Of a stretch of DNA of 64,000 nucleotides, positions 2,638 to 59,901 are shown piece after piece. Numbering within the stretch: position 1 is the stretch's first letter; each line of letters starts with the position of its first letter. The position numbers and the translations under genes are program-made. Origin of the DNA: an uncultured virus (IMG/VR IMGVR_UViG_3300030106_006575) (taxonomy: Duplodnaviria; Heunggongvirae; Uroviricota; Caudoviricetes); the IMG/VR virus record IMGVR_UViG_3300030106_006575, one strand, 5' to 3'. A model generated the notes under the pieces. It saw only the letters and a program-made list of their open reading frames with translations. It made no database searches and had not been told where the DNA came from.

Positions 2638-3192
2638 ATGGCATTCTGGACAGACGTATCCGCTAACTTAACGGAACCGAAAAGAGCATATAGGTTTATC
2701 GTGAACATTGCTAACTTTCCGGATGGTGCACAATGGTACGCCAAGAGCGCAACCAAGCCCAGTTTTAATATTAATGAAGCAAAACATAGTTACCTGAATC
2801 ATAGTTTTTATTATCCGGGTCGCGTTGAGTGGAATCCTGTTTCGATTACTTTGGTCGATCCTGGACAGCCCGATGCATCAGCCAACCTTCTTGAATTCCT
2901 TTCAATGGCCGGCTATGCACCCCCTTCAACTCAAAATGATTTGAGTACACTTAGTAAAGGCGAAATGGTTTCGGCATTGGGACAGATAACTATAGAGCAG
3001 ATTGATTCTAATGGAAATATGCTTGAACAGTGGACTATGAATGGTTCTTGGATTACAGAAATCTCATATAGTGACCTTTCTTATGAAAGTGACGATCTAA
3101 CCGAATTGTCTCTAACAATACGTTATGATTGGGCGACGTGTAACACAACAAATCCATCGAATGAAGGCAACACTGAGTTCTTCCAGATCTAG
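2638..3192 (+). CDS. Tail tube protein (T4 gp19-like)
   Basis: Follows the sheath; EPKRAYRF, YYPGRVEWNPVSITLVDP, W..G.W, LSY..DD, LTIRYDWA pattern. Confidence 0.85.
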   Translation: MAFWTDVSANLTEPKRAYRFIVNIANFPDGAQWYAKSATKPSFNINEAKHSYLNHSFYYPGRVEWNPVSITLVDPGQPDASANLLEFLSMAGYAPPSTQNDLSTLSKGEMVSALGQITIEQIDSNGNMLEQWTMNGSWITEISYSDLSYESDDLTELSLTIRYDWATCNTTNPSNEGNTEFFQI

Positions 3193-3222
3193 CATAAAAA
3201 CAAATCCACTTTGAGGTGAAAA

Positions 3223-4071
3223 TTGAGTAGAAATAATCAGGGGCGAACTGGAGCCCCGAAACGACCTGAGCCGGCAGATGTACCGGTAACCCCTCCCGCG
3301 GGAGGCTTTTCCTTTGCGACCCCAACAGAATTTGTTGAGTTGCCGACACAAGGAAAGTATTATCCAGAAGGACATCCTCTTCACGGCGAAGAGAGTATTG
3401 AAATACGTTATATGACAGCTAAGGATGAGGATATTCTTACATCAGAAACTCTTCTTAAGAAAGGCTTGGCTATTGAGCGCCTGCTTCAAAGTGTCATTGT
3501 CAATAAGGCTATTGATGTTAATACTTTGTATGTTGGAGATAAGAACGCTATTCTTATTGCTGCTCGTATTACTGGCTATGGAAATCAATATACAACAAGA
3601 ACTTTGTGTCCAGGCTGCTCTGCGGTATCTGAGTTTACATACGATCTTTCAAAATTGAAATCTTATGACGGAAGCGACTGGGGTGATTTTAATATTAAGC
3701 CAGATGAAAATGATAGATTCTTCATCACATTGCCTCAGTCGGAAGTGGAAGTTGGGGTCCACTTGATGACAAGCAGGCACGAACGTGCGTTGACTGAAGC
3801 TACTTCCAAAAGGAAAAAACAAAAGCTTCCCGAAGCTATCTTGACGAACCAGATGAAAGCTTTCATCCATTCAGTTAATGGGCACACTGATGCTAAATCC
3901 ATTCAAACTTTTATTAATGGCGTCCCCGCTAGTGATTCTAAATATTTGAGAACTGCATATCAAACGTTGATTCCGAATGTGGATATGACTCAGTTGTTTA
4001 ACTGCGAGCCTTGCGGGCTTGAACAGGAGGTGACGGTGCCGTTCACCGCCGCGTTTCTATGGCCTAAATGA
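3223..4071 (+). CDS. Baseplate hub/tail assembly chaperone (gp26-like)
   Basis: VELPTQGKYY, MTAKDEDILT, GDKNAILIAARITGYG, two CxxC pairs; lies between tube and tape measure. Confidence 0.7.
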   Translation: MSRNNQGRTGAPKRPEPADVPVTPPAGGFSFATPTEFVELPTQGKYYPEGHPLHGEESIEIRYMTAKDEDILTSETLLKKGLAIERLLQSVIVNKAIDVNTLYVGDKNAILIAARITGYGNQYTTRTLCPGCSAVSEFTYDLSKLKSYDGSDWGDFNIKPDENDRFFITLPQSEVEVGVHLMTSRHERALTEATSKRKKQKLPEAILTNQMKAFIHSVNGHTDAKSIQTFINGVPASDSKYLRTAYQTLIPNVDMTQLFNCEPCGLEQEVTVPFTAAFLWPK

Positions 4072-16422: not shown

Positions 16423-17544
16423 ATGGCTAAAGCTAAGAAGCAAAAGGCAGGAAAGCTTTCTATCGCAGATATGCGAAAGATCATTAATAAGAAAGCAGGT
16501 ATTGAAGTCGCCCATGATTTGGGAGGCACCAATCCGACCGAAGTAAAAGAATGGATTCCAACTGGCTCACGCTGGCTAAATTCCATTATCTGTCGAGGCA
16601 AATACGCTGGTATTCCGATTGGTAAAATCAGCGAGATTGCCGGTCTTTCAGCTTCAGGCAAGTCGTATATGGCAGCTCAGATCGCAGGCAACGCCCAGAA
16701 AATGGGGATTGATGTTGTTTATTTTGATTCTGAGTCTGCCGTGGACCCAGACTTCTTGGCTGGCGCGGGCTGTGATTTAGAGAAACTACTTTATATCCAA
16801 GCACAATCAGTCGAGTTCGTTTTGGAAACCATTGAAGAGTTATTGGCCGGTAATGAAAACCGAATGCTCTTTATCTGGGACTCGCTTGCCATGACGCCTG
16901 CCGTATCTGATATCGAGGGTGACTTTAATCCCCTTTCCAGTATGGCAGTTAAGCCTCGTATTCTTTCAAAGGGGTTTGCTAAGCTAACGGTGCCGATTGC
17001 AAACTCGCAGTCAACCTTGCTTATTCTGAACCAGTTGAAAACCAATATTACGAGTAATATTGCAGAAGCCCGTTTGGAACCGTATTTCACCCCCGGTGGA
17101 AAGGCTGCAATCTACGCTTATTCGCTTCGAATCTGGCTAACTGCCCGACGAGGCAAATCAAGCTTCATTTATGATGATAAGGGATTCCGTGTTGGTACGG
17201 AGGTTAAAGCGAAGATTAAGAAGTCTCGTTTTGGCTCTGATGCACGAGAATGCACATTTAAGATTTTGTGGGCCGGTGAAGACGTGAAGATCCAAGATGA
17301 AGAGTCTTGGCTAGAGTCCATTAAAGGTTCTAAATATCTCACAAACGCCGGAGCCTGGTTTACTTTGCAATATGAAGATGGATCCAGCGAGAAGTTTCAA
17401 TCTGCTACTTGGATTAAGAAACTTGAGAGTGAAAAGTTTAGAAATCGTGTTTTGCAGGTTATGGAAGAAGAGGTTATTCTTAAATTCGAGAAAAAAGAAG
17501 TCGATGCAAAAGAATTTTATGATATTGATGGAGAAGATGAATAA
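16423..17544 (+). CDS. recA: RecA/UvsX recombinase
   Basis: IPTGS, Walker A GLSASGKS, YFDSE, IWDSLA, ILNQ, TPGGKA. Confidence 0.92.
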   Translation: MAKAKKQKAGKLSIADMRKIINKKAGIEVAHDLGGTNPTEVKEWIPTGSRWLNSIICRGKYAGIPIGKISEIAGLSASGKSYMAAQIAGNAQKMGIDVVYFDSESAVDPDFLAGAGCDLEKLLYIQAQSVEFVLETIEELLAGNENRMLFIWDSLAMTPAVSDIEGDFNPLSSMAVKPRILSKGFAKLTVPIANSQSTLLILNQLKTNITSNIAEARLEPYFTPGGKAAIYAYSLRIWLTARRGKSSFIYDDKGFRVGTEVKAKIKKSRFGSDARECTFKILWAGEDVKIQDEESWLESIKGSKYLTNAGAWFTLQYEDGSSEKFQSATWIKKLESEKFRNRVLQVMEEEVILKFEKKEVDAKEFYDIDGEDE

Positions 17545-26012: not shown

Positions 26013-29000
26013 ATGAGTAAAATACCATTTGTGGGATTACACGCGCATAGCGTTGCAGGATCTATATTTGATGCCTTGGGCTATCCGCAAGAGCACATGA
26101 ACTTTGCTTATGAAAATGGCATGGATGCGCTTGCATTAACAGATCACGGCAATATGAATGGGCTTGCTTGGCAGGTTTTGCACGCCAAGAAAATGCAAGC
26201 AGAAGGCAAGGACTTTAAGCCTATTTTCGGCTGTGAAGCCTATTTTGTTCCCTCCATCGCCAAGTGGCGCGATGAGTATGAAAGCATTATGCAGGACAAG
26301 AAAGCCGCCCGGGCCGCGAAGAAGGAAGAGACTTCGGGCGCAACGGTTGAGGATGAGGAAGCTTCCAAAAAGGCTACTCGGAGTATTCTCAACCGCCGGC
26401 GACATCTTGTCCTGCTCGTCCAGAACCAGACCGGTCTAAACAACCTTTTCAAGCTGATTTCTGAGTCGTACCAGCCCGAGAACTTCTATCGTTACCCGCG
26501 ACTGGACTTTGATCTTCTGGAGAAGTACAACGAGGGCATTATTGCGTCCTCTGCGTGCTTAGGAGGCGTCTATGCTGGCTGCTACTGGGAGAACCGGGAG
26601 GAAGGCAAAGAAGCTGTTCTGGGCGCTATGAGGGACGTTACAGAGCGTATGGTTNNNNNNNNNNCTATCCTTGATGCTATGCGTGAGACAACCAAGCGTA
26701 TGATAGAAGTATTGGGTGATCGTTGGTATGGCGAGCTTCAGTGGAACAACATTCCCGAACAGCACGAACTCAACAAGTATATCATTCAGGTGTGCAAGGA
26801 GTTTGGCGTCCAGATGATTTCCACTGCCGATAGTCACTATCCTAATCCTGATGCTTGGCGTGACCGAGAACTATATAAGCGACTTGGCTGGCTTGGTAAG
26901 GGTCGTCCTTCCTGGGGCGGTGACGGAGAGCTACCCATCGACGTTGACGAAATTGGGTACGAGCTATATCCAAAGAACGGCGATCAGATGTGGGAGTCCT
27001 ATAAGAAGTATTCTGAGCTATGTGGTGTGGAGTACGATGACCAACTGGTCTATGACTCGTTTACTACTACGCACTTTATTGCACACGAACGCATTGATTC
27101 GTTTATGCCAGACAACACGGTTCGCTTACCAGACTTTGTTATTCCCGTAGGCGAGACTGCTGATTCCGCTCTTCGTAAATTCTGTTTTGAAGGACTGAGA
27201 GCGAAGAACTTGCACAAGAATGATGAATACACTGAGCGCCTAGAGCACGAACTTTCGGTTATTGCAGACCGTGGTTTCTCTAAGTATTTCTTGACGATGA
27301 ACGAGATTGCGACCATCACGAACAAGGTGATGCTCACTGGTCCCGGTCGAGGGTCGGCAGCGGGTTCTCTTGTCGCCTACGCACTGGATATTACACAAGT
27401 CGATCCTCTCAAGTACGGACTTCAGTTTGCACGATTCCTCCGAGCCGATGCCAAGGACTATCCAGATATTGACTATGATGTAGCCGAACCGATGGAGTTG
27501 AAAGAGCTACTGGTGGAGAAGTGGGGCAACGATGTTGTCGCCCCCATCTCCAACTGGAATACTCTCCAATTGAAGTCGCTTATCAAAGATATTTCTAAAC
27601 TTTATGATATTCCTTTCCAAGAGGTCAACGCCGTTACTGGAAAGATGATGTTTGAAGCTACTGTTGCAGCAAAGCAGAAGCACGGCATTAGGGCTGGGGT
27701 GTATACTCCCACATTTGAAGAAGTGAAAGAGTTCTCTTCCACGCTTCGTGCTTTCTTGGCTAAATATCCAAATGTTGCAACACATGTCGATGCTTTATAT
27801 GGACAGGTCCGGTCCTGCTCCCGTCACGCTGGTGGCGTGGTGATTGCAGAGGACTTGGATACTCATATGCCGCTTATCTCCTCCAAGGATGTGCGTCAAA
27901 CGCCTTGGTCGGAGGGACAAAACGTCCGTCATCTAGAGCCCATGGGCTTTATCAAGTTTGACCTTCTGGGACTCTCTACCCTCCGCATGATTGAGGGTGC
28001 CATTCGGCATGTTCTCAAGCGTTATGAGGGTATCGAGAATCCATCGTTCAAGGATGTTATGAGTTATTACAATAACAAGCTCCATCCAGATGTCATTGAT
28101 TTCAATGACCAGAAGGTCTACAAAAACGTGTTCCAAAAGGGGAAGTGGGCTGGTGTATTCCAATTTACTGAAACCGGTGCACAAAACCTTTGCAAGCAGG
28201 TACAGCCAAAGAATCTCATTGATATCTCGGCTATTACCTCTATCTTCCGTCCCGGTCCTCTGTCGGCCAATGTTGACAAGGACTTTGTGAAGACTCGTCG
28301 AAGTCCCGGCATGGTGACCTATATGAATGAGATGCACCGCGAGGTGACCGAAGAGACGAACGGCTTCCTTATTTTCCAAGAGCAAATCGCTATGCTTGCA
28401 CATAAGCTAGGTAAAGACTTGTCTCTGGACGAGGGAAATATGCTTCGTAAGGTTCTCACGAAGAAAGGGACTGGCAAAGCTGCTAAAGTCAAGAAGGCTC
28501 TGCACGGCAAGTTCATCCAAGGTTGTGTTGACAAAGGAATGAACAAGTCCGCCGCCGAAAGGCTTTGGGAGACATTTGAATACTTTTCCGGCTATGGCTT
28601 TAATAAATCTCACGCCGTATCTTATTCGATGATTTCGTTCCAGTGTGCTTGGCTTCTAAACTACTATCCTGAGTGCTGGATGGCAGCATTCCTCGATAAG
28701 GAGCCTGAAACGCGCAAAGAGAAGGCTATCGCAATCGCCAAGCAGTTTGGCTTTGAGATTGAGCCGCTGAGTGTCAATACCTCTGGTCGAGTCTGGGAGA
28801 TTAGTGAAGACGGTAAGAAGCTGATTCAGCCGTTGACTTCTATCAAGGGATTGGGTGATGCCGCCATTGACCAGATATTCATTGGTCGTCCTTTCGAGAA
28901 AATTGAAGAGTTCCTTTTCAATGAAGATATGCGCTATTCCAAGCTCAACAAGAAGTCTCTTGACGTTCTTGTCCGCTCCGGAGCCTTGCAGCCACTTGTT

Positions 29001-29495
29001 GACGAACGCTTCACCGGAATGAGGCACTTTTGGTCTGCTATCGCTGTGGATCGCCCTCGTAAGCTAAAGAATCTTGAAGAGAACATTAAGCTTTATGCTC
29101 CCGAAGGTGATTTTACCGAGGAAGAGAAGATCCAGTCACTTGTTGACCTGACCGGACAGTTCCCGATTCATCGAGTGGTGAAAGAAGATATTATGGAAAA
29201 GCTAAACGCCATGGCGATTCCCCCCATTTCTGAGTATGACCCAGATTTGCAAGTTGTTTGGCTGGTGCCTCGTAAGATTACACCGAAGAAGACCAAGAAC
29301 GGAAAAGATTATTTAGTTGTTGACGCTACAGATTCCAATTCTTCTAATATTCGTATCCGTTGTTGGGGTGTTGATATCAGAGGTGGGGATAATATTGAGA
29401 TTAACAAACCCTACCTTATCCGCCCACAATACAATCTAGAGTGGGGGTTTTCCACTAGAGGTCGTGCATTTAAAACTTGGAAAGCTCTTGCATAG
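26013..29495 (+). CDS. dnaE: DNA polymerase III alpha subunit
   Basis: PHP domain (LHAHS, TDHG, ADSHY), GRGSAAGSLV, PDIDYD, KFDLLGL, YGFNKSHA. N gap at 26655-26664. Confidence 0.96.
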   Translation: MSKIPFVGLHAHSVAGSIFDALGYPQEHMNFAYENGMDALALTDHGNMNGLAWQVLHAKKMQAEGKDFKPIFGCEAYFVPSIAKWRDEYESIMQDKKAARAAKKEETSGATVEDEEASKKATRSILNRRRHLVLLVQNQTGLNNLFKLISESYQPENFYRYPRLDFDLLEKYNEGIIASSACLGGVYAGCYWENREEGKEAVLGAMRDVTERMVXXXXILDAMRETTKRMIEVLGDRWYGELQWNNIPEQHELNKYIIQVCKEFGVQMISTADSHYPNPDAWRDRELYKRLGWLGKGRPSWGGDGELPIDVDEIGYELYPKNGDQMWESYKKYSELCGVEYDDQLVYDSFTTTHFIAHERIDSFMPDNTVRLPDFVIPVGETADSALRKFCFEGLRAKNLHKNDEYTERLEHELSVIADRGFSKYFLTMNEIATITNKVMLTGPGRGSAAGSLVAYALDITQVDPLKYGLQFARFLRADAKDYPDIDYDVAEPMELKELLVEKWGNDVVAPISNWNTLQLKSLIKDISKLYDIPFQEVNAVTGKMMFEATVAAKQKHGIRAGVYTPTFEEVKEFSSTLRAFLAKYPNVATHVDALYGQVRSCSRHAGGVVIAEDLDTHMPLISSKDVRQTPWSEGQNVRHLEPMGFIKFDLLGLSTLRMIEGAIRHVLKRYEGIENPSFKDVMSYYNNKLHPDVIDFNDQKVYKNVFQKGKWAGVFQFTETGAQNLCKQVQPKNLIDISAITSIFRPGPLSANVDKDFVKTRRSPGMVTYMNEMHREVTEETNGFLIFQEQIAMLAHKLGKDLSLDEGNMLRKVLTKKGTGKAAKVKKALHGKFIQGCVDKGMNKSAAERLWETFEYFSGYGFNKSHAVSYSMISFQCAWLLNYYPECWMAAFLDKEPETRKEKAIAIAKQFGFEIEPLSVNTSGRVWEISEDGKKLIQPLTSIKGLGDAAIDQIFIGRPFEKIEEFLFNEDMRYSKLNKKSLDVLVRSGALQPLVDERFTGMRHFWSAIAVDRPRKLKNLEENIKLYAPEGDFTEEEKIQSLVDLTGQFPIHRVVKEDIMEKLNAMAIPPISEYDPDLQVVWLVPRKITPKKTKNGKDYLVVDATDSNSSNIRIRCWGVDIRGGDNIEINKPYLIRPQYNLEWGFSTRGRAFKTWKALA

Positions 29496-29538: not shown

Positions 29539-30060
29539 ATGAATATATTTCCAATTGAAGGCAACGAAGAAACAGGCGAGATTGACTGGATTAGGTCGGC
29601 TCAATCACAAGACAACTATCGTGTCGTAAAGATGATATTAGAGTCTTGTCAGATTCTGAGCACAGTTCTTAATGAACAAGGTATCAAGGCTCCATATCGC
29701 TCATTCAATCCAAAGCATCCGTCTTGCCTGTGGGCAGCGGAGAGTTCTGATAACTTTCTAAAGCTGGCTATGCACTGTTCAGCAATGATTGGTGAATATA
29801 AAGCAAGATTTGGTAAAGTTCATAAATGCACGGATGTATTGATAGAGATTCTGGATTTGTTTGATGAGACGCGATTTGCAAACCACAAGCCCACACCGAT
29901 TCGTATGGCTATGCCGGAGCATTTTAAGAGCGACAATCCAGTAATATCATATCGCAAGTATTATGCCAGCAAGCCACGGATTCGATACCCAGAGAACAAA
30001 GTGCCATTATGGTTTGATGAATACCGTGGCTCTGAACCATACGAGGTGATTAGTGAATAA
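29539..30060 (+). CDS. Pyrimidine-dimer DNA glycosylase-like protein
   Basis: MNIF, VVKMILESCQILST, HP.CLWA, RFGKVH, AMP, YR.YY. Confidence 0.75.
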   Translation: MNIFPIEGNEETGEIDWIRSAQSQDNYRVVKMILESCQILSTVLNEQGIKAPYRSFNPKHPSCLWAAESSDNFLKLAMHCSAMIGEYKARFGKVHKCTDVLIEILDLFDETRFANHKPTPIRMAMPEHFKSDNPVISYRKYYASKPRIRYPENKVPLWFDEYRGSEPYEVISE

Positions 30061-31069
30061 CTTAATAGTTGATATTATAGTTGGGCTCCAAGCAGGAGAT
30101 GAGGGAAAAGGAAAGGTTACCCACAACCTTTTAAGGGAACGCGACTACACACACTGCGTTCGTTATAATGGGGGCGGTAACGCCGGACACACTATCTACC
30201 ATAATGGACAAAAGTTCGTTACCCACGCTGTTCCTGCCGGCATTTTTTATGGTATTAAATCTATTATTGGACCTGGCTGTGTTTTGGATATTAATAAGTT
30301 CTTTGAAGAAGTCCAGATGCTTAATAATGCTGGAATCAATACTGATGGACTAATCTTTATTTCTAAAAACGCACACATCATTCAGCCGGAGCACTTGGCC
30401 GAGGATGGTAAAGATACCAAGATTGGTACTACCCGCACAGGTAATGGACCAGCGTATCGCGACAAGTATGCTCGCAAAGGTGTTAGGGCACAGGATGTCG
30501 ATGCACTATTGCCTTACCTTATCGACTTCTACTATGAAATGCACTATAATGTGAAACCTGTTGTAGCTCTTTTTGAAGGCGCTCAAGGCTTTCAACTGGA
30601 TGTCGATTGGGGAGACTACCCATATGTTACTTCGAGCCACTGTACGTCGGCTGGAGCGCTCCTAAACGGCATTCCTCCCCAAGCTGTCCGCGAAGTGTGG
30701 GGTGTCGCAAAGATGTACGAGACTTATGTGGGGACAAAGGAGTTTCAGCCCAAAGGAGACATCTTTAAAGACCTTCAACGGGCAGGTAATGAATTTGGTG
30801 CGACAACTGGTCGCCCACGGCAATGCAACTGGCTAAATATTGAAGCACTAATCAGATCTGTCGCGATGAATGGGGCCACACACGTCGTCTTTAATAAAGT
30901 GGATATTTTACGAGATGTGGGGTCTTGGCGTCTTCGACTCAATAATCGGTCAAGGAGCGAGATGATTTTTCAAAAAGAAGAACAAATGATTAATTATCTT
31001 GAAAATAGTTTCCCAAATACAACCTTGTATTTCTCGGATAATCCAGAAACTTTTGATTTATGTGCTTGA
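30053..31069 (+). CDS. purA: Adenylosuccinate synthetase (short form)
   Basis: GDEGKGK, GG.NAGHT, IGTT.TG.GPAY.DK, EGAQG, YPYVTSS, GATTGRPR. Confidence 0.92.
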   Translation: MNNLIVDIIVGLQAGDEGKGKVTHNLLRERDYTHCVRYNGGGNAGHTIYHNGQKFVTHAVPAGIFYGIKSIIGPGCVLDINKFFEEVQMLNNAGINTDGLIFISKNAHIIQPEHLAEDGKDTKIGTTRTGNGPAYRDKYARKGVRAQDVDALLPYLIDFYYEMHYNVKPVVALFEGAQGFQLDVDWGDYPYVTSSHCTSAGALLNGIPPQAVREVWGVAKMYETYVGTKEFQPKGDIFKDLQRAGNEFGATTGRPRQCNWLNIEALIRSVAMNGATHVVFNKVDILRDVGSWRLRLNNRSRSEMIFQKEEQMINYLENSFPNTTLYFSDNPETFDLCA

Positions 31070-38494: not shown

Positions 38495-40063
38495 TTGTCA
38501 GTTAAATACGATGATGGGTCTTCCCTTCATAAGAAAATGATTCAGGGTGTGGACATTCTAGCAGATAACATTGCTAGTACCCTAGGTCCGAAAGGGCGAA
38601 ATGTACTTTTGAGGCAGAAAGATAAAGCCCCTTTTATTACCAAGGATGGCGTTACTGTCTCAAGGTTTGTAAAGCTGGAAGATCCCTTTATGGACGCAGC
38701 AGCGCAAGTTATTCGACAGGCTTCCGAGAATACTAACATTAGTGCAGGAGACGGCACAACGACAGCCACGGTGCTTTCAAGGGCAATCCTAAAGAACGCT
38801 CACAAGCACTTGATTAACGACACCAGTGTGGTTGAGATTAAGAGAGGTATTGATAAAGCAGCCGCAGAGATAGCCAAGCAGCTTGAAGAGATGGCAACGC
38901 CAGTTCAAAGCAAAGAAGATATTGAACATATCGCAACTATATCAGCAAACAATGATGCAGCAGTGGGAACTTTAATATCAAACGCAGTGGACAGCGTAGG
39001 CAAAGACGGCTCTATTACAATAGAAGAAGCCGGCTCTCTTGAGACTTCATTGGACTTCCAAGAAGGTTTTCGGTTCCCCGGTGGTTATGCCGCCGGCGCA
39101 TTTATCACCGATGAAAGACGAGGGGCCGCTATTTATGAAAATGCCTTTGTGCTTGTTGCTGATGCCAAGATAGAGAATGTGCAAGATATTCTCCCTGTTT
39201 TGGAGCAGGTGGCAAGAGAAAACAAGCCACTGGTCATTGTCGCTAGCGAGATCGAAGGTCAAGCCTTGGCTGCTTTGATTATGAATACAGTGCGTGGGAG
39301 TCTAAAGGTTGCCGCTGTTAAGATTTCACGTTATGGAGCCGAGAGGCGCAATATTCTGGGAGACTTGTGTCTGGCGACTGGAGCCTCGTATATCACGAAG
39401 AACTCCGCTCTTAAACTAGAAGAGGTTAAGCTGGAGCACTTAGGGACTTGCTCGCGAATAGAAATACTTAAACACATAACGACAGTCGTTGGCGGAAATC
39501 GAGATCAAGAAAAAGTTGAAGAAAAGATTGAAGCATTAAAAGCCGAGCTAGAACAAGCCGAGACTTTTCCTGAGTGTGAGAGGATCCAAGAGCGCGTCAC
39601 TAGGTTGGCTTCCGGTGTCGCTATTATAAAAGTTGGTGCCCCAACTGAGGTTGAGATGACGGAGAAAAAGCACCGCATTGAGGATGCTTTGGAAGCTGTG
39701 AAAGCCGCCCAATTGGAGGGTATCGTGCCTGGAGGTGGTGTCGCTTTCTTGAGGGTTCTCAAGAACTTAGAGGTGAATGTTGACAATCAAGATCAAGCCA
39801 TCGGCGCTCAATGTGTTGCAGAGGCAATCAGGGAGCCAATAAGACAGATGGCTAAGAATGCTGGCCTTAGTGCCGATATTGTTGAGAATATAGTTCAAAG
39901 CATGGAAGGCACGAAAGGCTTTGATTTTAGTCGGCAAACAGAGTGCGATATGATTGAGGCTGGCATTATCGATCCAGTTCGAGTAACAAAGGTTGCTTTG
40001 CAAAATGCTGCATCAGCCGCCGGAACCTTGATTATGACCGGCTATTCTATTTTGGAGGTTTGA
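38495..40063 (+). CDS. groEL: Chaperonin GroEL
   Basis: TLGPKGRNV, ITKDGVTV, AGDGTTTATVL, EGIVPGGG, GIIDP. Confidence 0.96.
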   Translation: MSVKYDDGSSLHKKMIQGVDILADNIASTLGPKGRNVLLRQKDKAPFITKDGVTVSRFVKLEDPFMDAAAQVIRQASENTNISAGDGTTTATVLSRAILKNAHKHLINDTSVVEIKRGIDKAAAEIAKQLEEMATPVQSKEDIEHIATISANNDAAVGTLISNAVDSVGKDGSITIEEAGSLETSLDFQEGFRFPGGYAAGAFITDERRGAAIYENAFVLVADAKIENVQDILPVLEQVARENKPLVIVASEIEGQALAALIMNTVRGSLKVAAVKISRYGAERRNILGDLCLATGASYITKNSALKLEEVKLEHLGTCSRIEILKHITTVVGGNRDQEKVEEKIEALKAELEQAETFPECERIQERVTRLASGVAIIKVGAPTEVEMTEKKHRIEDALEAVKAAQLEGIVPGGGVAFLRVLKNLEVNVDNQDQAIGAQCVAEAIREPIRQMAKNAGLSADIVENIVQSMEGTKGFDFSRQTECDMIEAGIIDPVRVTKVALQNAASAAGTLIMTGYSILEV

Positions 40064-41976: not shown

Positions 41977-42393
41977 ATGTCTTTAGTTAAGTACAACCCA
42001 AATATTCAACCACTTTTCAATCGGTTTGAGGATATTTTTGATATTTTTGATGCTTTCGATCCGATTTCCCGCCCGACACCTAGTCTTTCGGGACCAAAGA
42101 CCAATGTCGAGAACATTGACGGAAAGCACATCATATCGATTGCGACACCCGGTATTGATAAGGATGATTTGAAGGTGGATATTGGTGATGGACGTATATC
42201 CATTTCTTATGACCAGGAGTCAGGGGATGGATCGAATAGTTGGATTCAGAAATCTTTTGCCCGTTCTTGGAACTTGCCCAAGAATGTAAACATCGACGCC
42301 ATTTCAGCAGCGTATGATAATGGGGTTTTGAGGGTTACAGTGCCGAAGAACGAAGAAACAGTGCCCATTGCACGGCGCATTGAGATAGTTTAG
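41977..42393 (+). CDS. Small heat-shock protein Hsp20
   Basis: PG..K.DL.V, SF.RSW.LP, A.YDNGVL.V.VPK, IEI; sigma70-type promoter at 41905-41932. Confidence 0.9.
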   Translation: MSLVKYNPNIQPLFNRFEDIFDIFDAFDPISRPTPSLSGPKTNVENIDGKHIISIATPGIDKDDLKVDIGDGRISISYDQESGDGSNSWIQKSFARSWNLPKNVNIDAISAAYDNGVLRVTVPKNEETVPIARRIEIV

Positions 42394-53482: not shown

Positions 53483-53986
53483 ATGGCTGCTAAACATTTA
53501 TCTGCCCGTGAAAACTGGCAAAAGAAAGCAAGCGAGATCGGCATTAGAGGCGAGATCACCCTTGCTGCCGCCCTTCGCTGCACCTTTCCACGGCAATACG
53601 AGGTGATAGAGAAGCCACCTAAGTTGTGTATTTACCCGGAAAGGCCAGGGAAAAAACGGAAAGGCATTTGCCCAGATATAAAGATTATCAATCATAACAC
53701 GGGCAAGTCTCTATATCTTGAGAAGAAGACGGGTGACGCATGCGCCGGCAATGCGCATAATCGTGCCGGCGTGTATATGGGAGGAGGTAGAAAACGTGCT
53801 GTCCGTCGCGTCGATCCTAGCGTGGCCGATGAGCCTTTCTTTATAGTGTTCTCTGGAGCCACTTTCCAACTCGAAGAATACCAAGACAGGATAAAAGTTG
53901 ACTTCGAGTGCACACCCCACGCTATAATGGACCCAGATTTTGCGAATATTAACGAAGTTGCAAAGCGGATCATGGAGATTGTATGA
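53483..53986 (+). CDS. Putative type II restriction endonuclease (PD-(D/E)xK, MunI-like)
   Basis: PD.KIIN..TGKSLYLEKK, GNAH; ATGA-coupled to the methylase. Confidence 0.55.
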   Translation: MAAKHLSARENWQKKASEIGIRGEITLAAALRCTFPRQYEVIEKPPKLCIYPERPGKKRKGICPDIKIINHNTGKSLYLEKKTGDACAGNAHNRAGVYMGGGRKRAVRRVDPSVADEPFFIVFSGATFQLEEYQDRIKVDFECTPHAIMDPDFANINEVAKRIMEIV

Positions 53987-54984
53987 AGCCACTGTTTATG
54001 TGGGCTGGCGGTAAAACCAAGTTGCTCGATACTTTTGCTGAACACCTACCAGAAAGTTTTGATACATACATTGAGCCTTTCTTTGGTGGTGGAGCTATGT
54101 TTACATGGGCACACTCCAAAAATCCAGATGCAAAGTTCGTAATTAACGATATAAATCCATACATTATGGAGATTTATCGTACAATCAAAAATGATTTGCA
54201 GCAGTTTTACAATATCCTTGATGACTTGGAAGCTAAGTATATCGCACTTGCGCCGCCAACTTACAAGAAGATTGTTTATCTGGATGGCAAGAAGAAGACG
54301 AAGTGGGTTCCCCACGAAGACGGCAAGCCGGACAAAGACCTGGAGAAAAGTCATAAATTAAAGGGCAATACTTACGATTGGGATAGCATTTATCGCCTTC
54401 GTCCTTCCCGTCGAACTTTTTTCTTTAAGGCACGGGCTTTATATCAGGAAAATCTGCATAACTGGAGTGTAACCCGGCGTTCGGCATATCTTTATTTTTT
54501 AATGAAAACGGCGTTTAATGGTGTTTGGCAAGCCAAGGCTGGTACAGATATTTTTAACACTCCATGCGGGCTGATGAGACAAAAAGATACCATTTATGAT
54601 AAAGACAACGTGTTGCTCTGGAATAAAGCACTTCAGAAGGCGACTATTTTGGATGGGGATTTCCAGCAAGCATTAAGTCACGCTTCTGGTAACGCATTTG
54701 TTTATTTAGACCCTCCATATCGCGGAGGCTTCGCAGATTACAACACCAAGAAAGATGATGATTTTCAAGAATTAGTTATTAAGTTTTTTGAAAACTGTAA
54801 AAGTAGAGGCTCATACTGCCTTTTGTCGAATCGTGACTTGGGCGACAGCTTCTTCTTGTCAAGAAAAGGAACTAACAAGCTGGTATATTTCGATGTGACT
54901 TATACTGTCGGCAGAAAGAAGAAGACTGAAGATGGTGGTCACGAAGCCACAAAAGCACGCGAGATATTGATGATAGGACAGTAA
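53983..54984 (+). CDS. DNA N6-adenine methyltransferase (Dam/D12 class)
   Basis: WAGGK, YIEPFFGGGA, INDIN, YLDPPY. Confidence 0.92.
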   Translation: MKPLFMWAGGKTKLLDTFAEHLPESFDTYIEPFFGGGAMFTWAHSKNPDAKFVINDINPYIMEIYRTIKNDLQQFYNILDDLEAKYIALAPPTYKKIVYLDGKKKTKWVPHEDGKPDKDLEKSHKLKGNTYDWDSIYRLRPSRRTFFFKARALYQENLHNWSVTRRSAYLYFLMKTAFNGVWQAKAGTDIFNTPCGLMRQKDTIYDKDNVLLWNKALQKATILDGDFQQALSHASGNAFVYLDPPYRGGFADYNTKKDDDFQELVIKFFENCKSRGSYCLLSNRDLGDSFFLSRKGTNKLVYFDVTYTVGRKKKTEDGGHEATKAREILMIGQ

Positions 54985-55073: not shown

Positions 55074-55093
55074 TTTAACTAGGGAATCGTCTC

Positions 55094-55147
55094 TTGACAT
55101 TTTCTTTACAATTAATCATTGACATACGCCTCGATTGGTAGTATAAT
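55094..55147 (+). promoter_or_regulatory. Sigma70 promoter with upstream direct-repeat box
   Basis: TTGACA-N5-TTTACA, then TTGACA-17-TATAAT. Confidence 0.7.
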
Positions 55148-56771: not shown

Positions 56772-56981
56772 AACGGGTGAATGAGGCAGGTAAACACAAG
56801 TGCGAGTTATCCTCCGCTTGTGTAACATTGGAAGCGTTCAAAGCCAGACACGAACGCATGGCACAACAAGCGCCGAGGCTGTATTGCTCAAGACTCGCTG
56901 TGTCTAGGCCGAAAGGTAGTTGAAAGCTGGATAGCGAGGGAGACGCGGTAAAGACAGCGACCCCTACCTCATTCGCCCGTT
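56772..56981 (+). ncRNA. Putative structured non-coding RNA (unassigned family; strand assumed from flanking genes)
   Basis: 15-bp closing helix 56772-56786/56967-56981 enclosing several hairpins and a GAAA tetraloop; no + strand ORF. Confidence 0.55.
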
Positions 56982-57038
56982 TTAAATTCTTAACTTTTAA
57001 ACTTAACAACCAACAAAACCTTCATTATGGAGTTTATA

Positions 57039-57365
57039 ATGAAAACAGTCACAGCTAGCAATCTACGAGTACAGTTTACAGATATTCTAAAAGACCTTTC
57101 AACTGGTCCGGTCAACATTACTAAACACGGCAAGACAATTGCAGTCCTTACAAGCCCTGAGAGCCCCGTGAAGCGCGTTTCAAGGGTAGCCCCGACTATA
57201 GACCCGTTTGGCTCTTACGAAGAGCCTAGCGAGCCAGTACAGGCACTTATAAACGTCCTCTCCGATGACGAAGATGATGAGGGAGAGCCGCCCGACTGGG
57301 ACGCTCAGATGGAGGCAGACTTTGATAGGTATATAGAAAATATGATTGAAACAAATACAGCTTGA
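57039..57365 (+). CDS. Phd/YefM-type antitoxin domain protein with acidic tail
   Basis: MKTVTASNLR..F..IL.....GPV.ITKHGK.IAVL. Confidence 0.75.
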   Translation: MKTVTASNLRVQFTDILKDLSTGPVNITKHGKTIAVLTSPESPVKRVSRVAPTIDPFGSYEEPSEPVQALINVLSDDEDDEGEPPDWDAQMEADFDRYIENMIETNTA

Positions 57366-57382
57366 AGCTGGCTTTACCACAC

Positions 57383-57437
57383 TTGACATTTTCTTTACAA
57401 TTTAGGGCTGGACTTCCAGCCCATTTGGTTGTATAAT
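57383..57437 (+). promoter_or_regulatory. Sigma70 promoter with upstream direct-repeat box
   Basis: TTGACA-N5-TTTACA, TGGACT-17-TATAAT. Confidence 0.65.
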
Positions 57438-57443
57438 ATATGT

Positions 57444-57626
57444 ATGAATGAGAAAATAAAAGTCGGTGATATTGTAGTTCGGACATACGGGGAAGGAGAA
57501 CGCCCCCGTGGATTCGTTTTAGGGAAGCGCTACGTCGATGGGTTGATAGTCCGATGGTTTGGGCCAGCAATGAAAGAAGAAGTTATTAGTGCAAGATACT
57601 TGGAGGTTATAAATGAAAGTCGGTGA
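57444..57626 (+). CDS. MKVGDLV-family small protein (possibly leaderless)
   Basis: IKVGDIV...LEVINESR; ATG 7 nt after the -10 box. Confidence 0.7.
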   Translation: MNEKIKVGDIVVRTYGEGERPRGFVLGKRYVDGLIVRWFGPAMKEEVISARYLEVINESR

Positions 57627-57849
57627 TTTGGTAATGTTTAAGCACAATAACCCCACCTATTCAAAGTGGTTTGGCGGTGAGCTTGGTATTGTAATAAGCT
57701 ATACAGCCAAAGCGCCAGATGGTCATGCTCACTGTCGCGTTCAGTGGGTTAGACCAGTTAAATACTTTAAAAGTTGGACTACAAGTTCTGACTTTAAGGC
57801 CGATAATTATGAGGTTGTCAATGAAAGTCGGCGATTTAGTAACTTATAG
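57613..57849 (+). CDS. MKVGDLV-family small protein
   Basis: MKVGDLV...LGIV...VQW...YEVVNESR. Confidence 0.75.
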   Translation: MKVGDLVMFKHNNPTYSKWFGGELGIVISYTAKAPDGHAHCRVQWVRPVKYFKSWTTSSDFKADNYEVVNESRRFSNL

Positions 57850-58000
57850 CTCGCCATCGATAACTGGCAACTTTATCGGTCTAGTCACTGAAACTGGTAT
57901 TTGGACGGGCAATTGCGATGTAAAAGTTTTGTGGTGTGGTGATTCTCAGGCACAAACGTATAAAAGTGCTTACTTGAAGGTCATCAATGAAGGTCGGTGA
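57821..58000 (+). CDS. MKVGDLV-family small protein
   Basis: MKVGDLV...IGLV...VLW...LKVINEGR. Confidence 0.75.
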   Translation: MKVGDLVTYSSPSITGNFIGLVTETGIWTGNCDVKVLWCGDSQAQTYKSAYLKVINEGR

Positions 58001-58190
58001 TTTAGTAAAGTTGAAACCAAACGCAGCGGAAGGAAATGCTGAAAGCGTAGGTTTGGGGGTTGTTATCAAGGAGGGAAAAGATGAACATAATCAGGAGTTT
58101 GCATATGTTGTATTTCTGAAAATGCAAGGCAAACCTTGGTTTCGCTACAAAACAGAGTTGGAATTAGTTGAAGATGTCAAGAAAATGTAA
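57987..58190 (+). CDS. MKVGDLV-family small protein
   Basis: MKVGDLVKL...LGVV...LELV. Confidence 0.75.
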   Translation: MKVGDLVKLKPNAAEGNAESVGLGVVIKEGKDEHNQEFAYVVFLKMQGKPWFRYKTELELVEDVKKM

Positions 58191-58236
58191 AGACTAGTCT
58201 ATACACGTTGACTTTCTTTTACTACTATGGTATATT
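58175..58236 (+). promoter_or_regulatory. Sigma70 promoter with inverted direct-repeat box
   Basis: TGTCAA-N5-TGTAAA, TTGACT-17-TATATT. Confidence 0.6.
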
Positions 58237-58258
58237 ATTAAGACAAGGGAGGAGAACA

Positions 58259-58501
58259 ATGTTAGAAGCACTTTCTAAGATTAAAGAGGAGCAAGACAGA
58301 GCCCAGGTATTGAGGGTCGAGTTGGAGCAGATAGCCAAACTCGATTCACTGGGCATAACTCGACACAATATTGTGAAGCAGCGCAAGCGCGTCCAATGGC
58401 TTGACGGAAACAAGCGGATAGAAACAGGTGAGGCCGACATCATTATGCGAGATGGAACCAGGCATATTGTTCCGGCAAGGCTTTTGAAATGGAATAAATA
58501 G
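58259..58501 (+). CDS. Hypothetical protein interrupting the array
   Basis: GGAGGAG RBS. Confidence 0.65.
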   Translation: MLEALSKIKEEQDRAQVLRVELEQIAKLDSLGITRHNIVKQRKRVQWLDGNKRIETGEADIIMRDGTRHIVPARLLKWNK

Positions 58502-58526
58502 CGGGAATACAATAAGGGAGAGAATC

Positions 58527-58757
58527 GTGCAGGTTGGTCAAACAATAGAAATCAAGGCTCTTTCCGGCGCAAGTCGGCGTACAAAGAACAGAATCAGAGA
58601 GCGTGGCTCGCAGGGGTTTGTGGTCAGTCAACCACCCCAGCCTGTAAGATTCTCCAATTCCAGAGGAGTTGACTGGGTTTTGCTTGACTCAAAAGATTCG
58701 GATTGGTCTGGTTGGCTCCCTGTCGATGAAATCGAGGTCATCAATGCAAGTCGGTGA
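58527..58757 (+). CDS. MKVGDLV-family small protein (variant)
   Basis: MQVGQTI...W.GW...IEVINASR. Confidence 0.7.
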   Translation: MQVGQTIEIKALSGASRRTKNRIRERGSQGFVVSQPPQPVRFSNSRGVDWVLLDSKDSDWSGWLPVDEIEVINASR

Positions 58758-58896
58758 TTTGGTGAGGTTTGTTGATTGCTTTGGCAACGATATAAGGTTG
58801 GGGCTTGTGCTTATTGCCGATGTTGATTATGCGAAAGTGTTGGGCATCGGATGGGTGCGACGAAACCAATTGGAGGTGCTCAATGCAAGTCGGTGA
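58744..58896 (+). CDS. MKVGDLV-family small protein
   Basis: MQVGDLVRF...LGLV...LEVLNASR. Confidence 0.75.
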   Translation: MQVGDLVRFVDCFGNDIRLGLVLIADVDYAKVLGIGWVRRNQLEVLNASR

Positions 58897-59047
58897 TTTG
58901 GTACAGAACTGGGCCGACGGTATTGGAGTTCTTATCAGGAAAGTTAGTGATTTTGACGGTGATGTTTGGTGGCTTGTCCAGTGGGCACACGGCGAGCGTG
59001 ACACGCTTAACGAGCGTTTGATGGAGGTTATCAATGCAAGTCGGTGA
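58883..59047 (+). CDS. MKVGDLV-family small protein
   Basis: MQVGDLV...IGVL...VQW...MEVINASR. Confidence 0.75.
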   Translation: MQVGDLVQNWADGIGVLIRKVSDFDGDVWWLVQWAHGERDTLNERLMEVINASR

Positions 59048-59207
59048 TTTAGTAAAGTTCAAAGGAGATATTGGAGTCACCCGACCCAGCCCTCTCTTTC
59101 TTATTCTGGATATTATAGCTCACACCACACTTGTCGTTAGTCTCCAGACGAACCATAAAATGTGGGGGGACAAAGCGGCTTATGAGGTTATCAGTGAAAG
59201 CCGGTGA
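59034..59207 (+). CDS. MKVGDLV-family small protein (not in ORF track)
   Basis: Manual translation MQVGDLVKFKG...YEVISESR. Confidence 0.7.
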   Translation: MQVGDLVKFKGDIGVTRPSPLFLILDIIAHTTLVVSLQTNHKMWGDKAAYEVISESR

Positions 59208-59382
59208 TTTAGTAAGGTTGAAGAGCCTGCCCGAAGAGTGCGGCAATGTCGGACTTATAACTAGGATATTACACACTAGTGTTAATACAGGACAGATTGT
59301 CTTTCTCGCCAATGGCACAAAACGCTCCGTTCCTTGGTTTAAACGGGATGAATTCTTGGAGGTGATTAGTGAAAGTCGGTGA
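59194..59382 (+). CDS. MKVGDLV-family small protein
   Basis: GTG start; KAGDLVRL...VGLI...LEVISESR. Confidence 0.75.
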   Translation: MKAGDLVRLKSLPEECGNVGLITRILHTSVNTGQIVFLANGTKRSVPWFKRDEFLEVISESR

Positions 59383-59569
59383 TTTAGTAAAGTTGAAAAG
59401 CAAGCTAAAGAAGAAAGTCATGCAGATGTATGAAACATCAGACCATCCCTATTCGATTTCTCTTATTGTCGCTCCCGGTCGCGACAGAGTTTTGATTGAG
59501 AGCTTGAAAACTGGCTCTAGAGCGTGGGTGCGAAAGCAATCTATTGAGGTAGTCAGTGAAAGTCGGTGA
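59369..59569 (+). CDS. MKVGDLV-family small protein
   Basis: MKVGDLVKL...IEVVSESR. Confidence 0.75.
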   Translation: MKVGDLVKLKSKLKKKVMQMYETSDHPYSISLIVAPGRDRVLIESLKTGSRAWVRKQSIEVVSESR

Positions 59570-59720
59570 TTTAGTAAGAAGCAAGCGCACTGGTAAAGTT
59601 AGCCTTGTAACTAAGATATGGTGGGAAAACAAATCTACAGTCCTCTTTACTGCTAGCGGCTTTGCGGGCAACCAAGTGCACGATGCAAAGTTTTGGGAGG
59701 TTGTAAGTGCGAAAAGGTGA
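59556..59720 (+). CDS. MKVGDLV-family small protein (not in ORF track)
   Basis: Manual translation MKVGDLVRSK...WEVVSAKR. Confidence 0.7.
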   Translation: MKVGDLVRSKRTGKVSLVTKIWWENKSTVLFTASGFAGNQVHDAKFWEVVSAKR

Positions 59721-59901
59721 TGTTGTATGCTACAAGGGTGACAGAAGTGCGCTTGCAACCATAGCAATCGTGTATCCCGGTCAAGAAAAGTCCGGTCAGG
59801 CGGCTACTAGGGCTAAAATCATCTGGCTAACTGGTCCAAGCATCGGAAAAACTCGTATCTTTGATGTGCGAGACTTGATAAAGGTGAAACAAGCTGGATA
59901 A
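59707..59901 (+). CDS. MKVGDLV-family small protein (terminal, degenerate)
   Basis: MRKGDVV...IIW...LIKV. Confidence 0.7.
   Translation: MRKGDVVCYKGDRSALATIAIVYPGQEKSGQAATRAKIIWLTGPSIGKTRIFDVRDLIKVKQAG

Follow-up and report, generated by a model that had tools for sequence, protein, structure and literature searches.

The shuffling mediated by promoter-early stem-loops (PeSLs) in T4-type phages is the closest known mechanism to the one proposed here. According to the PeSL literature (Arbiol et al. 2010, PMC2839356; Comeau et al. 2014, PMC4122927), recombination between PeSL repeats leads to insertions, deletions and replacements between related phages, the motif ends with a Shine-Dalgarno (SD) sequence and the start of the next gene, and mini-circles that arise from recombination between nearby motifs are reported to be encapsidated. 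Here, we analyzed a 64-kb stretch of an uncultured virus (IMG/VR record IMGVR_UViG_3300030106_006575; hereafter the window, with positions counted from its first letter), in which 12 co-oriented open reading frames (ORFs) of 50–78 amino acids (aa) occupy positions 57444–59901 (+) as chains of 4 and 8 genes. We consider it probable that these chains are two operons of shuffled paralogous barrel mini-genes (hereafter cassettes) joined by a standard coding connector, which would provide both a predicted translational coupling and a recombination handle.

The two systems are alike in having short conserved repeats at gene boundaries, in their location within hyperplastic regions that contain many small early genes, and in the fact that indels and replacements between relatives end inside the repeat. 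In addition, five PeSL-like composite promoter modules are found around the arrays, one of which contains a stem-loop between its boxes. Unlike the PeSLs described there, however, the junction of the arrays (i) codes in two frames inside a 14-nucleotide (nt) overlap, (ii) has neither promoter nor stem-loop, which are the two defining PeSL features, (iii) links genes within one transcript, whereas PeSLs delimit transcription units, and (iv) connects cassettes of one protein family instead of unrelated ORFans.

The start of a cassette overlaps the stop of the previous one by exactly 14 nt at 9 of the 10 junctions. The last-strand codons L-E-V of the upstream gene (TTGGAGGT) give a GGAGGT Shine-Dalgarno sequence 5 nt before the downstream start, and ATGAAAGTCGGTGA, read one frame over, encodes (N/S)-E-S-R-stop; the first five downstream codons (M-K-V-G-D) therefore yield, in the other frame, the upstream tail (N/S)(E/A)SR and its TGA. 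With the downstream start overlapping the upstream stop and the SD located inside the upstream gene, the layout is that of a coupled operon. The exception lies at 57821, where the codon GGC instead of GGT causes the loss of the TGA, so that ORF 57613 extends five more codons to 57849. The ~30-nt junction pattern gave 9 matches at three mismatches or fewer in the window and none in 100 shuffles. An earlier, sequence-only reading of the window had claimed the ORFs, the repeat, the overlaps, the two-frame use of SD, start and stop, and the T>C change behind the lost stop; all of these were recovered here from the ORF list, the pattern count, the alignment and the family-wide tail statistics given below. 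A conserved RNA structure at the junction was considered and rejected (consensus fold of the 10 junctions, −1.8 kcal/mol), no inverted repeats or hairpins were found at the window junctions, and promoter-like sites were absent from them, the promoters being confined to separate ~65-nt modules.

Note that junctions of the same variant tend to lie next to each other (ATG-AAA three times, ATG-CAA three times and GTG four times): 7 of 9 neighboring junction pairs are of the same type, a value reached by 151 of 100,000 shuffles, and cassette bodies display no such neighbor similarity. Block inheritance or local conversion are possible origins. Recent tandem duplication was rejected, since neighboring cassette bodies do not resemble each other more than bodies lying far apart (similarity of 0.24 vs. 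0.22).

The connector is a hallmark of the whole family. No fewer than 154 stretches of IMG/VR contain its 19-mer, and the five large contigs that bear it (159–293 kb) all share the DnaE of the window (39–66% identity) and hold 2 to 24 family genes each, within one ~15 kb region except for two isolated copies in G004. From the fetched loci, we collected 658 distinct family genes forming 537 adjacent pairs; 335 of these pairs lie within 60 nt, and 288 of the 335 display the exact 14-nt overlap. Among 621 evaluable genes, an ORF starts 14 nt before the stop in 352 of the 362 genes ending in xR, and the tail is missing in 195 of the 205 genes for which no ORF starts at this position. The C-terminal tail is thus a by-product of the next gene's start and exists essentially only under a downstream overlap, a rule followed by both terminal genes of the window chains. 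The connector is also the only DNA common to otherwise unrelated cassettes. All 379 overlapped genes carry the GGT codon (background 29%), because the TGA stop requires it, and 275 of them carry GTC (background 20%). Non-overlapped first genes keep these two codons in 92/153 and 74/153 cases, respectively, as expected if they were recently internal. Moreover, GTG starts were found in 192/379 overlapped genes vs. 15/153 first or non-overlapped genes, and this excess, an indirect sign, would fit re-initiation over independent initiation.

Comparison with relatives showed that cassettes vary as whole units, which may be found or missing, occur in duplicate or stand in a different order, and that similarity begins and ends within the connector. 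As an example, the flanking genes 57027, 60027 and 60849 all have orthologues in the metagenome scaffold L158 (38–57% aa identity), and between these orthologues the order is a 58527-like cassette, a middle block chained by 14-nt overlaps (new, 57444-like, 59194-like, 58883-like, new, new and 57987-like) and a 59707-like cassette. Six window cassettes (57613, 57821, 58744, 59034, 59369 and 59556) have no orthologue in L158, and cassette 57444, first in the window, is internal there. Cassette 58883 and its close L158 copy (Table 1) have unrelated neighbors on both sides, just outside their two junctions. Among the IMG/VR contigs, common cassettes occur with other neighbors and in inverted order (e.g., 12-18 vs. 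18-12); between contigs that are not near-identical, the overlapped downstream neighbor is unchanged in 7/108 shared-cassette comparisons, which are not independent events, vs. 23/25 for two near-identical contig pairs. In addition, L013 and L020 are identical over their aligned stretch save for one extra 176-nt cassette in L013, bounded by a 20-nt direct repeat that corresponds to the junction core. Since L158 and the IMG/VR relatives differ in both content and order, the array is not fixed between genomes, and the gain, loss and reordering of whole in-register genes between junctions, anticipated by the sequence-only reading, was observed in the syntenic L158 as well as in the related contigs. 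Past its 14-nt chain, L158 also carries four more GDLV-type mini-genes with N-terminal extensions (2919–3842, +), which are joined by 4-nt or 1-nt overlaps, end in VEK-type tails and appear to form a second sub-family with a connector of their own.

It is most improbable that this gain, loss and reordering result from metagenome assembly errors at the repeated junction. The relatives are assemblies throughout, the contigs in four public runs often stop or branch at junctions, and there is an exact repeat of merely ~20 nt on which such errors could occur; however, repeats of this size are shorter than the 31-letter words of the contigs, and the separate scaffolds L157 and L158 display the same alternative order. 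Entire arrays, of 17 and 19 cassettes, are also common to the members of two further contig pairs without any change in order, several alternative arrangements were observed twice independently, and the window order is bridged across junctions 57613, 57821, 57987, 59556 and 59707 by identical contigs from three other studies. The joints listed for the public-run contigs all connect junction positions with sides of 21–32 nt, and the sides of those that go back (32 nt at most) match the junction alone; their reading as deletions was rejected, as other cassettes share the junction, and these joints were not used as evidence.

The position of the breakpoints was assessed with 68 orthologous pairs (at least 80% nt identity), for which upstream similarity stops within 10 nt of the start in 27 pairs, runs for at least 100 nt in 40 and ends between these limits in only one. 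In pairs with a different upstream (14 pairs) or downstream (13 pairs) neighbor, identity stays at a near-random level until 9 nt ahead of the start, is ~1.0 from the start codon on and drops to the near-random level again within ~10 nt past the stop. This identity profile indicates that the exchanged unit extends from start codon to stop codon, with crossovers in the ~20-nt shared core. Indeed, the end points of the indels and replacements fall in the junction motif for L013/L020, for cassette 58883 vs. L158 and for these crossover-zone pairs. Moreover, the genomes G001 and G002 share six cassette pairs in a different order, with 83–96% nt identity vs. 73% (82% aa) for DnaE, and cassettes closer than the polymerase point to exchange between lineages.

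The shuffling is well supported by the comparison of relatives. In the explanation that we favor, each chain would be placed behind a conserved sigma70-like promoter module, and the connector would couple translation, so that any cassette would be expressed wherever it lands. The connector would also serve as the short homology through which general recombination could delete, insert or swap whole in-frame genes, plausibly by the phage's own UvsX-type system during mixed infection. The UvsX-like recombinase encoded in the window is a candidate enzyme for this homology-driven exchange and may act at the junctions. The resulting proteins could be diversified, early-expressed binders for host takeover or counter-defence.

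Several points weigh against this explanation. First, the recombination role of the connector is inseparable from selection for recombinants that respect gene boundaries, and the translation, coupling and expression timing of the ORFs are predictions from sequence. Second, the 108 shared-cassette comparisons lack independence, as noted, and the cassette clusters behind them, built at 60% identity, may mix paralogues; the clean indel and the other orders rest on metagenome assemblies, in which a 20-nt repeat could mislead a short-k assembler; and no variation was found within the window's own lineage in the bridging contigs of the three other studies. Third, the structural matches of the proteins (see below) are generic, with Z-scores of 8.0 at most and no Foldseek match at E ≤ 1e-3 against the Protein Data Bank (PDB), and give no function, and no fused domain hints at one. 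Finally, synonymous conservation fades fast past the 14 overlapped bases, where the first free codons are mildly biased (GAT 69–81% vs. 62%; TTR 61–77% vs. 39%), and junction conservation is consequently explained in large part by the SD, start, stop and N-terminal GD-x-V strand.

The latter point is shared by the view that the cassettes are ordinary tandem paralogues, whose junction is kept for the SD, start, stop and first strand and whose rearrangements result from unspecific or illegitimate recombination followed by boundary selection, so that recombination would not prefer the junction as a substrate. GGT (for the TGA) and GTC (for the tail Arg) indeed make up most of the nucleotide conservation, codon bias is modest outside the overlap, barrels of the KOW and SH3_15 types typically begin with VGDxV, and neither RNA structure at the junction nor a site-specific recombinase was found. 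Nevertheless, we regard this view as unlikely: the breakpoints are bimodal (27, 40 and 1 of 68), an exact direct repeat of 20 nt borders the L013/L020 indel on both sides, first genes without overlap retain the junction codons, and the cassettes of G001 and G002 are more alike than the core gene of the same two genomes.

The sequence-only reading had also likened the array to integrons and CRISPR, and here the likeness holds for the architecture only, since no integrase, attC-like hairpin, cas gene or reverse transcriptase was found. Like integrons, the array has, as judged from its sequence, promoterless co-oriented cassettes behind an upstream promoter, together with a very large cassette pool and a turnover of whole, precise units. 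A dedicated site-specific recombinase encoded outside the window could in principle use the junction, perhaps with cassettes as circles, but we find this hardly credible: none of the 76 ORFs scanned (40 with PHROGs and 36 with Pfam) in 64 kb of a ~169-kb genome encodes an IntI-type integrase or such a recombinase, the junctions have no hairpin or inverted repeat, and crossovers fall anywhere in the ~20-nt shared zone, as in homologous exchange. On these grounds (i.e., no integrase and no attC-like hairpins), the array is not considered an integron, and its exchange looks homology-driven. Unlike those of integrons, array cassettes share one fold, and their expression would rest on the start/stop overlap, whereas integron cassettes have their own expression signals. 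The array is neither a CRISPR array nor a diversity-generating retroelement. In contrast to a non-coding repeat-spacer array, its 'spacers' are ORFs of one family under purifying selection, and no cas genes were found in the window ORF scans. A diversity-generating retroelement likewise offers many variants of one small binding scaffold in a phage locus; however, the cassettes are separate genes under purifying selection, 12–39% identical in their bodies within the window, with no targeted mutagenesis, and the window ORF scans revealed no reverse transcriptase and no template/variable repeat pair.

At the protein level, the family profile, a hidden Markov model (HMM), matches 12/12 array ORFs and one solo ORF in the 64-kb window, and nothing else. 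The solo member and the division of the array by a promoter-like site and an unrelated ORF (Table 1), both reported by the sequence-only reading, were found again with this profile, the promoter scan and the ORF list; the start region of the solo member (ATGAAAGTTGGTAAT) is a degenerate right half of the junction. Among 653 unique members, the N-terminus (M-K-V-G-D-L-V), a core (G-[IV]-[VI], one Val and one Trp) and the C-terminus (L-E-V-I-(S/N)-E-S-R) are conserved, and the remaining positions have ~4 bits of entropy and include three length-variable loops; isoelectric points (pI) range from 4.2 to 10. In their N-terminal strand (VGDxV), the proteins resemble the first residues of KOW and Mind-bomb SH3 repeats. 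None of the 14 small ORFs searched against Pfam and PHROGs passed the cut-off (best Pfam E-value of an array protein 0.15–0.16), with KOW, DUF2158, SH3_15 and other named barrel families all below it, no Pfam family was matched by more than two of 106 family members at E ≤ 0.1, and the ESM Atlas returned unnamed clusters only. A word-indexed search provided 223 unnamed relatives, and an exhaustive profile search 4,380 clusters at 50% identity (E ≤ 0.001), of which 143 of the best 150 are no longer than 85 aa.

Structure prediction indicates that the mini-proteins are KOW/Tudor/SH3-like five-strand barrels of ~50 residues, in agreement with the fold proposed by the sequence-only reading. AlphaFold2 returned a five-strand barrel for cassette 58883, with a predicted local distance difference test (pLDDT) value of 94 and a predicted template modeling (pTM) score of 0.76, and also for the divergent, longer cassette 58527 (pLDDT 78). 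The best Z-scores were obtained with the Spt5 KOW domain (4zn3_A, 8.0, root-mean-square deviation 1.7, 51 aligned) and the UvrD C-terminal domain on the RNA polymerase lobe (7egs_B, 7.6), and other matches included the PcrA/UvrD Tudor domain (5dma, template modeling (TM) score 0.73), the Mfd RNA polymerase-interacting domain and the eS4 KOW domain. Better matches, all of them unnamed, were obtained among predicted structures of viral proteins (five at E ≤ 0.001). As the scores of the solved structures fall in the range of common arrangements, these matches establish the fold but no function. The barrels of Spt5/NusG, UvrD/PcrA, Mfd and eS4 thus have a similar five-strand fold, whereas the array proteins are stand-alone and without Pfam membership.

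The search found no longer fused forms, which is itself weak evidence. Long hits of the representative search were rejected as phage fusions, being eukaryote-type Mind-bomb SH3/RING proteins or internal repeats, and a 775-aa 'cluster member' proved to be an unrelated outer-membrane-receptor-like protein. Note that P0116 (127 aa) and P0208 (126 aa) are natural in-frame fusions of two family units; in P0116, the reading frame continues across the connector to give ...LEVVKQVKVGDLV....

The sequence-only reading described the mini-genes as hypervariable, and this description stands for paralogues but not for orthologues. For 24 pairs of orthologous cassette bodies, from which the first and last eight codons were removed, the pooled ratio of nonsynonymous to synonymous substitution rates (dN/dS) is 0.22, with values below 1 in 23/23 pairs with measurable dS. 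Orthologous cassettes are therefore under purifying selection, and the family is hyperdiverse between paralogues without hypermutating. An alternative use of such genes is as subunits that assemble through their conserved first and last strands, the coupling serving stoichiometry, into a combinatorial hetero-oligomer. Overlapping start/stop pairs often mark the subunits of complexes, and the conserved surface positions of the cassettes are the junction-encoded termini only. However, neighbors change freely between relatives, pI values are widely spread (4.2 to 10), and the model is a closed monomeric barrel, so that we consider this assembly improbable.

Regarding the role of the shuffled barrels, we tentatively suggest that they could act as diversified early binders for host takeover or counter-defence, because of the early-type promoters, the methylase and antitoxin-like neighbors, the position of the arrays in G003, the stable scaffold with free surfaces and the varying charge. 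The KOW/Tudor likeness to modules that dock on RNA polymerase or the ribosome may be taken as a lead only. A broader reading, which we hold to be quite possible while giving it somewhat less than an even chance, is that a clade of large marine phages keeps a virome-wide pool of thousands of interchangeable single-domain barrel genes. The connector would then be silent at the protein level while carrying the ribosome site, start and stop, each homologous crossover in it would move a complete, immediately expressed gene inside one phage or from one co-infecting phage to another, and the whole would be a recombinase-free counterpart of the integron that re-deals early takeover or counter-defence binders.

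The source of the window is a large, uncultured marine myovirus, and the arrays sit in an early, hyperplastic part of its genome. A 168,682-base contig lists the proteins encoded in the window, which gives a genome of ~169 kb. All large ORFs of the window are on the + strand, and PHROGs matches include tail sheath and tube, baseplate hub, DnaE-type polymerase, DnaB-like helicase, UvsX-like recombinase, ribonucleotide reductase, PurZ-like synthetase and GroEL, together with an encoded Hsp20 domain protein. The public sequencing runs that contain the stretch are marine metagenomes in every case. Against 50,697 cultured-phage records, megablast of the region gave no match, blastn gave five chance hits of 26–46 nt and no junction arrays, and tblastn with the window DnaE polymerase reached at most 31% identity, with no cultured phage close. 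In G003, the one relative with terminal repeats, the arrays are located 16.6–32 kb from an end. A scan of 596 Gb of prokaryote genomes with the junction 19-mer gave 118 stretches, and no host could be inferred from the 80 of them listed. Only one of these 80, the contig L177 of a marine metagenome-assembled genome, has more than one junction match (3 within 600 nt), and it probably comes from a phage but was placed in a bacterial genome during binning. Separately, the PurZ-like adenylosuccinate-synthetase homologue (phrog_1211), the DnaE-type polymerase, GroEL and Hsp20 occur together in this one marine myovirus, whose genome, given the PurZ-like gene, may contain 2-aminoadenine.

Table 1. Features of the mini-gene arrays and of their surroundings in the 64-kb window (positions from the first letter of the window; overlap rows give start/previous stop)
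Feature	Position	Strand	Remarks
UvsX-like recombinase	16423..17544	+	phrog_97, E 3e-50
PurZ-like, DnaE-type polymerase, GroEL and Hsp20 ORFs	30053-31069 and 26013-29495, 38495-40063, 41977-42393		
Composite sigma70-like promoter modules, ~65 nt (five)	55093, 55795, 57382, 59907, 61697	+	
Solo family member, 57 aa	55175..55348	+	family HMM match; behind promoter module 55093-55147
ORF with Phd/YefM antitoxin-type N-terminal domain	57027..57365	+	30.0 bits vs. cut-off 29.8; directly upstream of chain 1
Promoter module copy before chain 1	57382..57440	+	stem-loop 57405-57422 between -35-like and -10 boxes
Cassette 1, 60 aa, opens chain 1	57444..57626	+	4-residue N-terminal extension; no upstream overlap; L158 orthologue internal (54% aa)
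Cassette 2, 78 aa	57613..57849	+	29-nt overlap with next gene, stop at next junction lost
Cassette 3, 59 aa	57821..58000	+	ORF list, family HMM
Cassette 4, 67 aa, ends chain 1	57987..58190	+	without ESR tail; orthologue also terminal in L157 and L158 (63% aa)
Promoter-like site between chains	58208..58236		10/12 consensus positions
Unrelated 80-aa ORF between chains	58259..58501	+	behind the promoter-like site
Cassette 5, 76 aa, GTG start, opens chain 2	58527..58757	+	L158 orthologue 59% aa
Cassette 6, 50 aa	58744..58896	+	ORF list, family HMM
Cassette 7, 54 aa	58883..59047	+	90% nt identity to L158:1904-2068
Cassette 8, 57 aa	59034..59207	+	ORF list, family HMM
Cassette 9, 62 aa, GTG start	59194..59382	+	ORF list, family HMM; orthologues in L157 and L158 (56-58% aa) at another position
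Cassette 10, 66 aa, GTG start	59369..59569	+	ORF list, family HMM
Cassette 11, 54 aa, GTG start	59556..59720	+	ORF list, family HMM
Cassette 12, 64 aa, GTG start, divergent, ends chain 2	59707..59901	+	without tail; orthologue in L157 and L158 (45% aa)
14-nt overlaps	57613/57626, 57987/58000, 58744/58757, 58883/58896, 59034/59047, 59194/59207, 59369/59382, 59556/59569, 59707/59720		
Junction repeats	57603..57632, then 57811, 57977, 58734, 58873, 59024, 59184, 59359, 59546	+	pattern match
Tenth junction	~59697	+	degenerate; visible only in alignment

The arrays are located in a 7-kb stretch of small ORFs that carries the five promoter modules, each made of two or three -35-like boxes, a variable middle and TGGTTGTATAATATAT; by sequence likeness, these modules resemble the PeSLs of T4-type phages. 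The Phd-like ORF 57027 is conserved in L158, where it likewise borders the array on its left side (38% aa). No toxin partner is visible for it, and it may be an orphan antitoxin directed against host toxin systems. Near the arrays there is also an ORF for a D12 adenine methylase. A 167-aa ORF with a sub-threshold match to the MunI restriction enzyme (24.4 bits vs. 25) overlaps the start of a D12-class adenine methyltransferase by 4 nt (region 53483–54984, +). Upstream of the Phd-like ORF, an ORF-free stretch of ~210 nt (56772–56982, +) has a predicted closed multi-helix fold, in which the closing helix has 15 bp and precedes a U run; its minimum free energy is −85.3 vs. −62.9 +/− 4.8 kcal/mol for shuffles (z −4.7), no Rfam family matches it at E ≤ 1, and the fold makes it a candidate structured phage RNA. 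In addition, contigs of two runs (X2 and X4) join 56856 back to 55715, both with the same 39 other letters in between, which suggests that in some strains the block of small ORFs that precedes the arrays is arranged differently.

Altogether, the mini-gene array system is real and widespread and apparently undescribed, and our literature searches (supplements aside) found no description of overlap-linked arrays of barrel mini-genes. The very large unnamed family of small barrels (~4,380 clusters at 50% identity) belongs to abundant marine viruses. If our explanation is true, phages would possess a second type of gene shuffling at repeats, one in which the repeat is itself coding and a 14-nt overlap doubles as expression coupler and recombination handle. 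The diversification of early accessory genes in phages would thereby become testable, since the connector can be scrambled synonymously and the cassettes are small enough for bulk synthesis and screening, and public metagenomes already provide a comparative signal of which cassettes move together.

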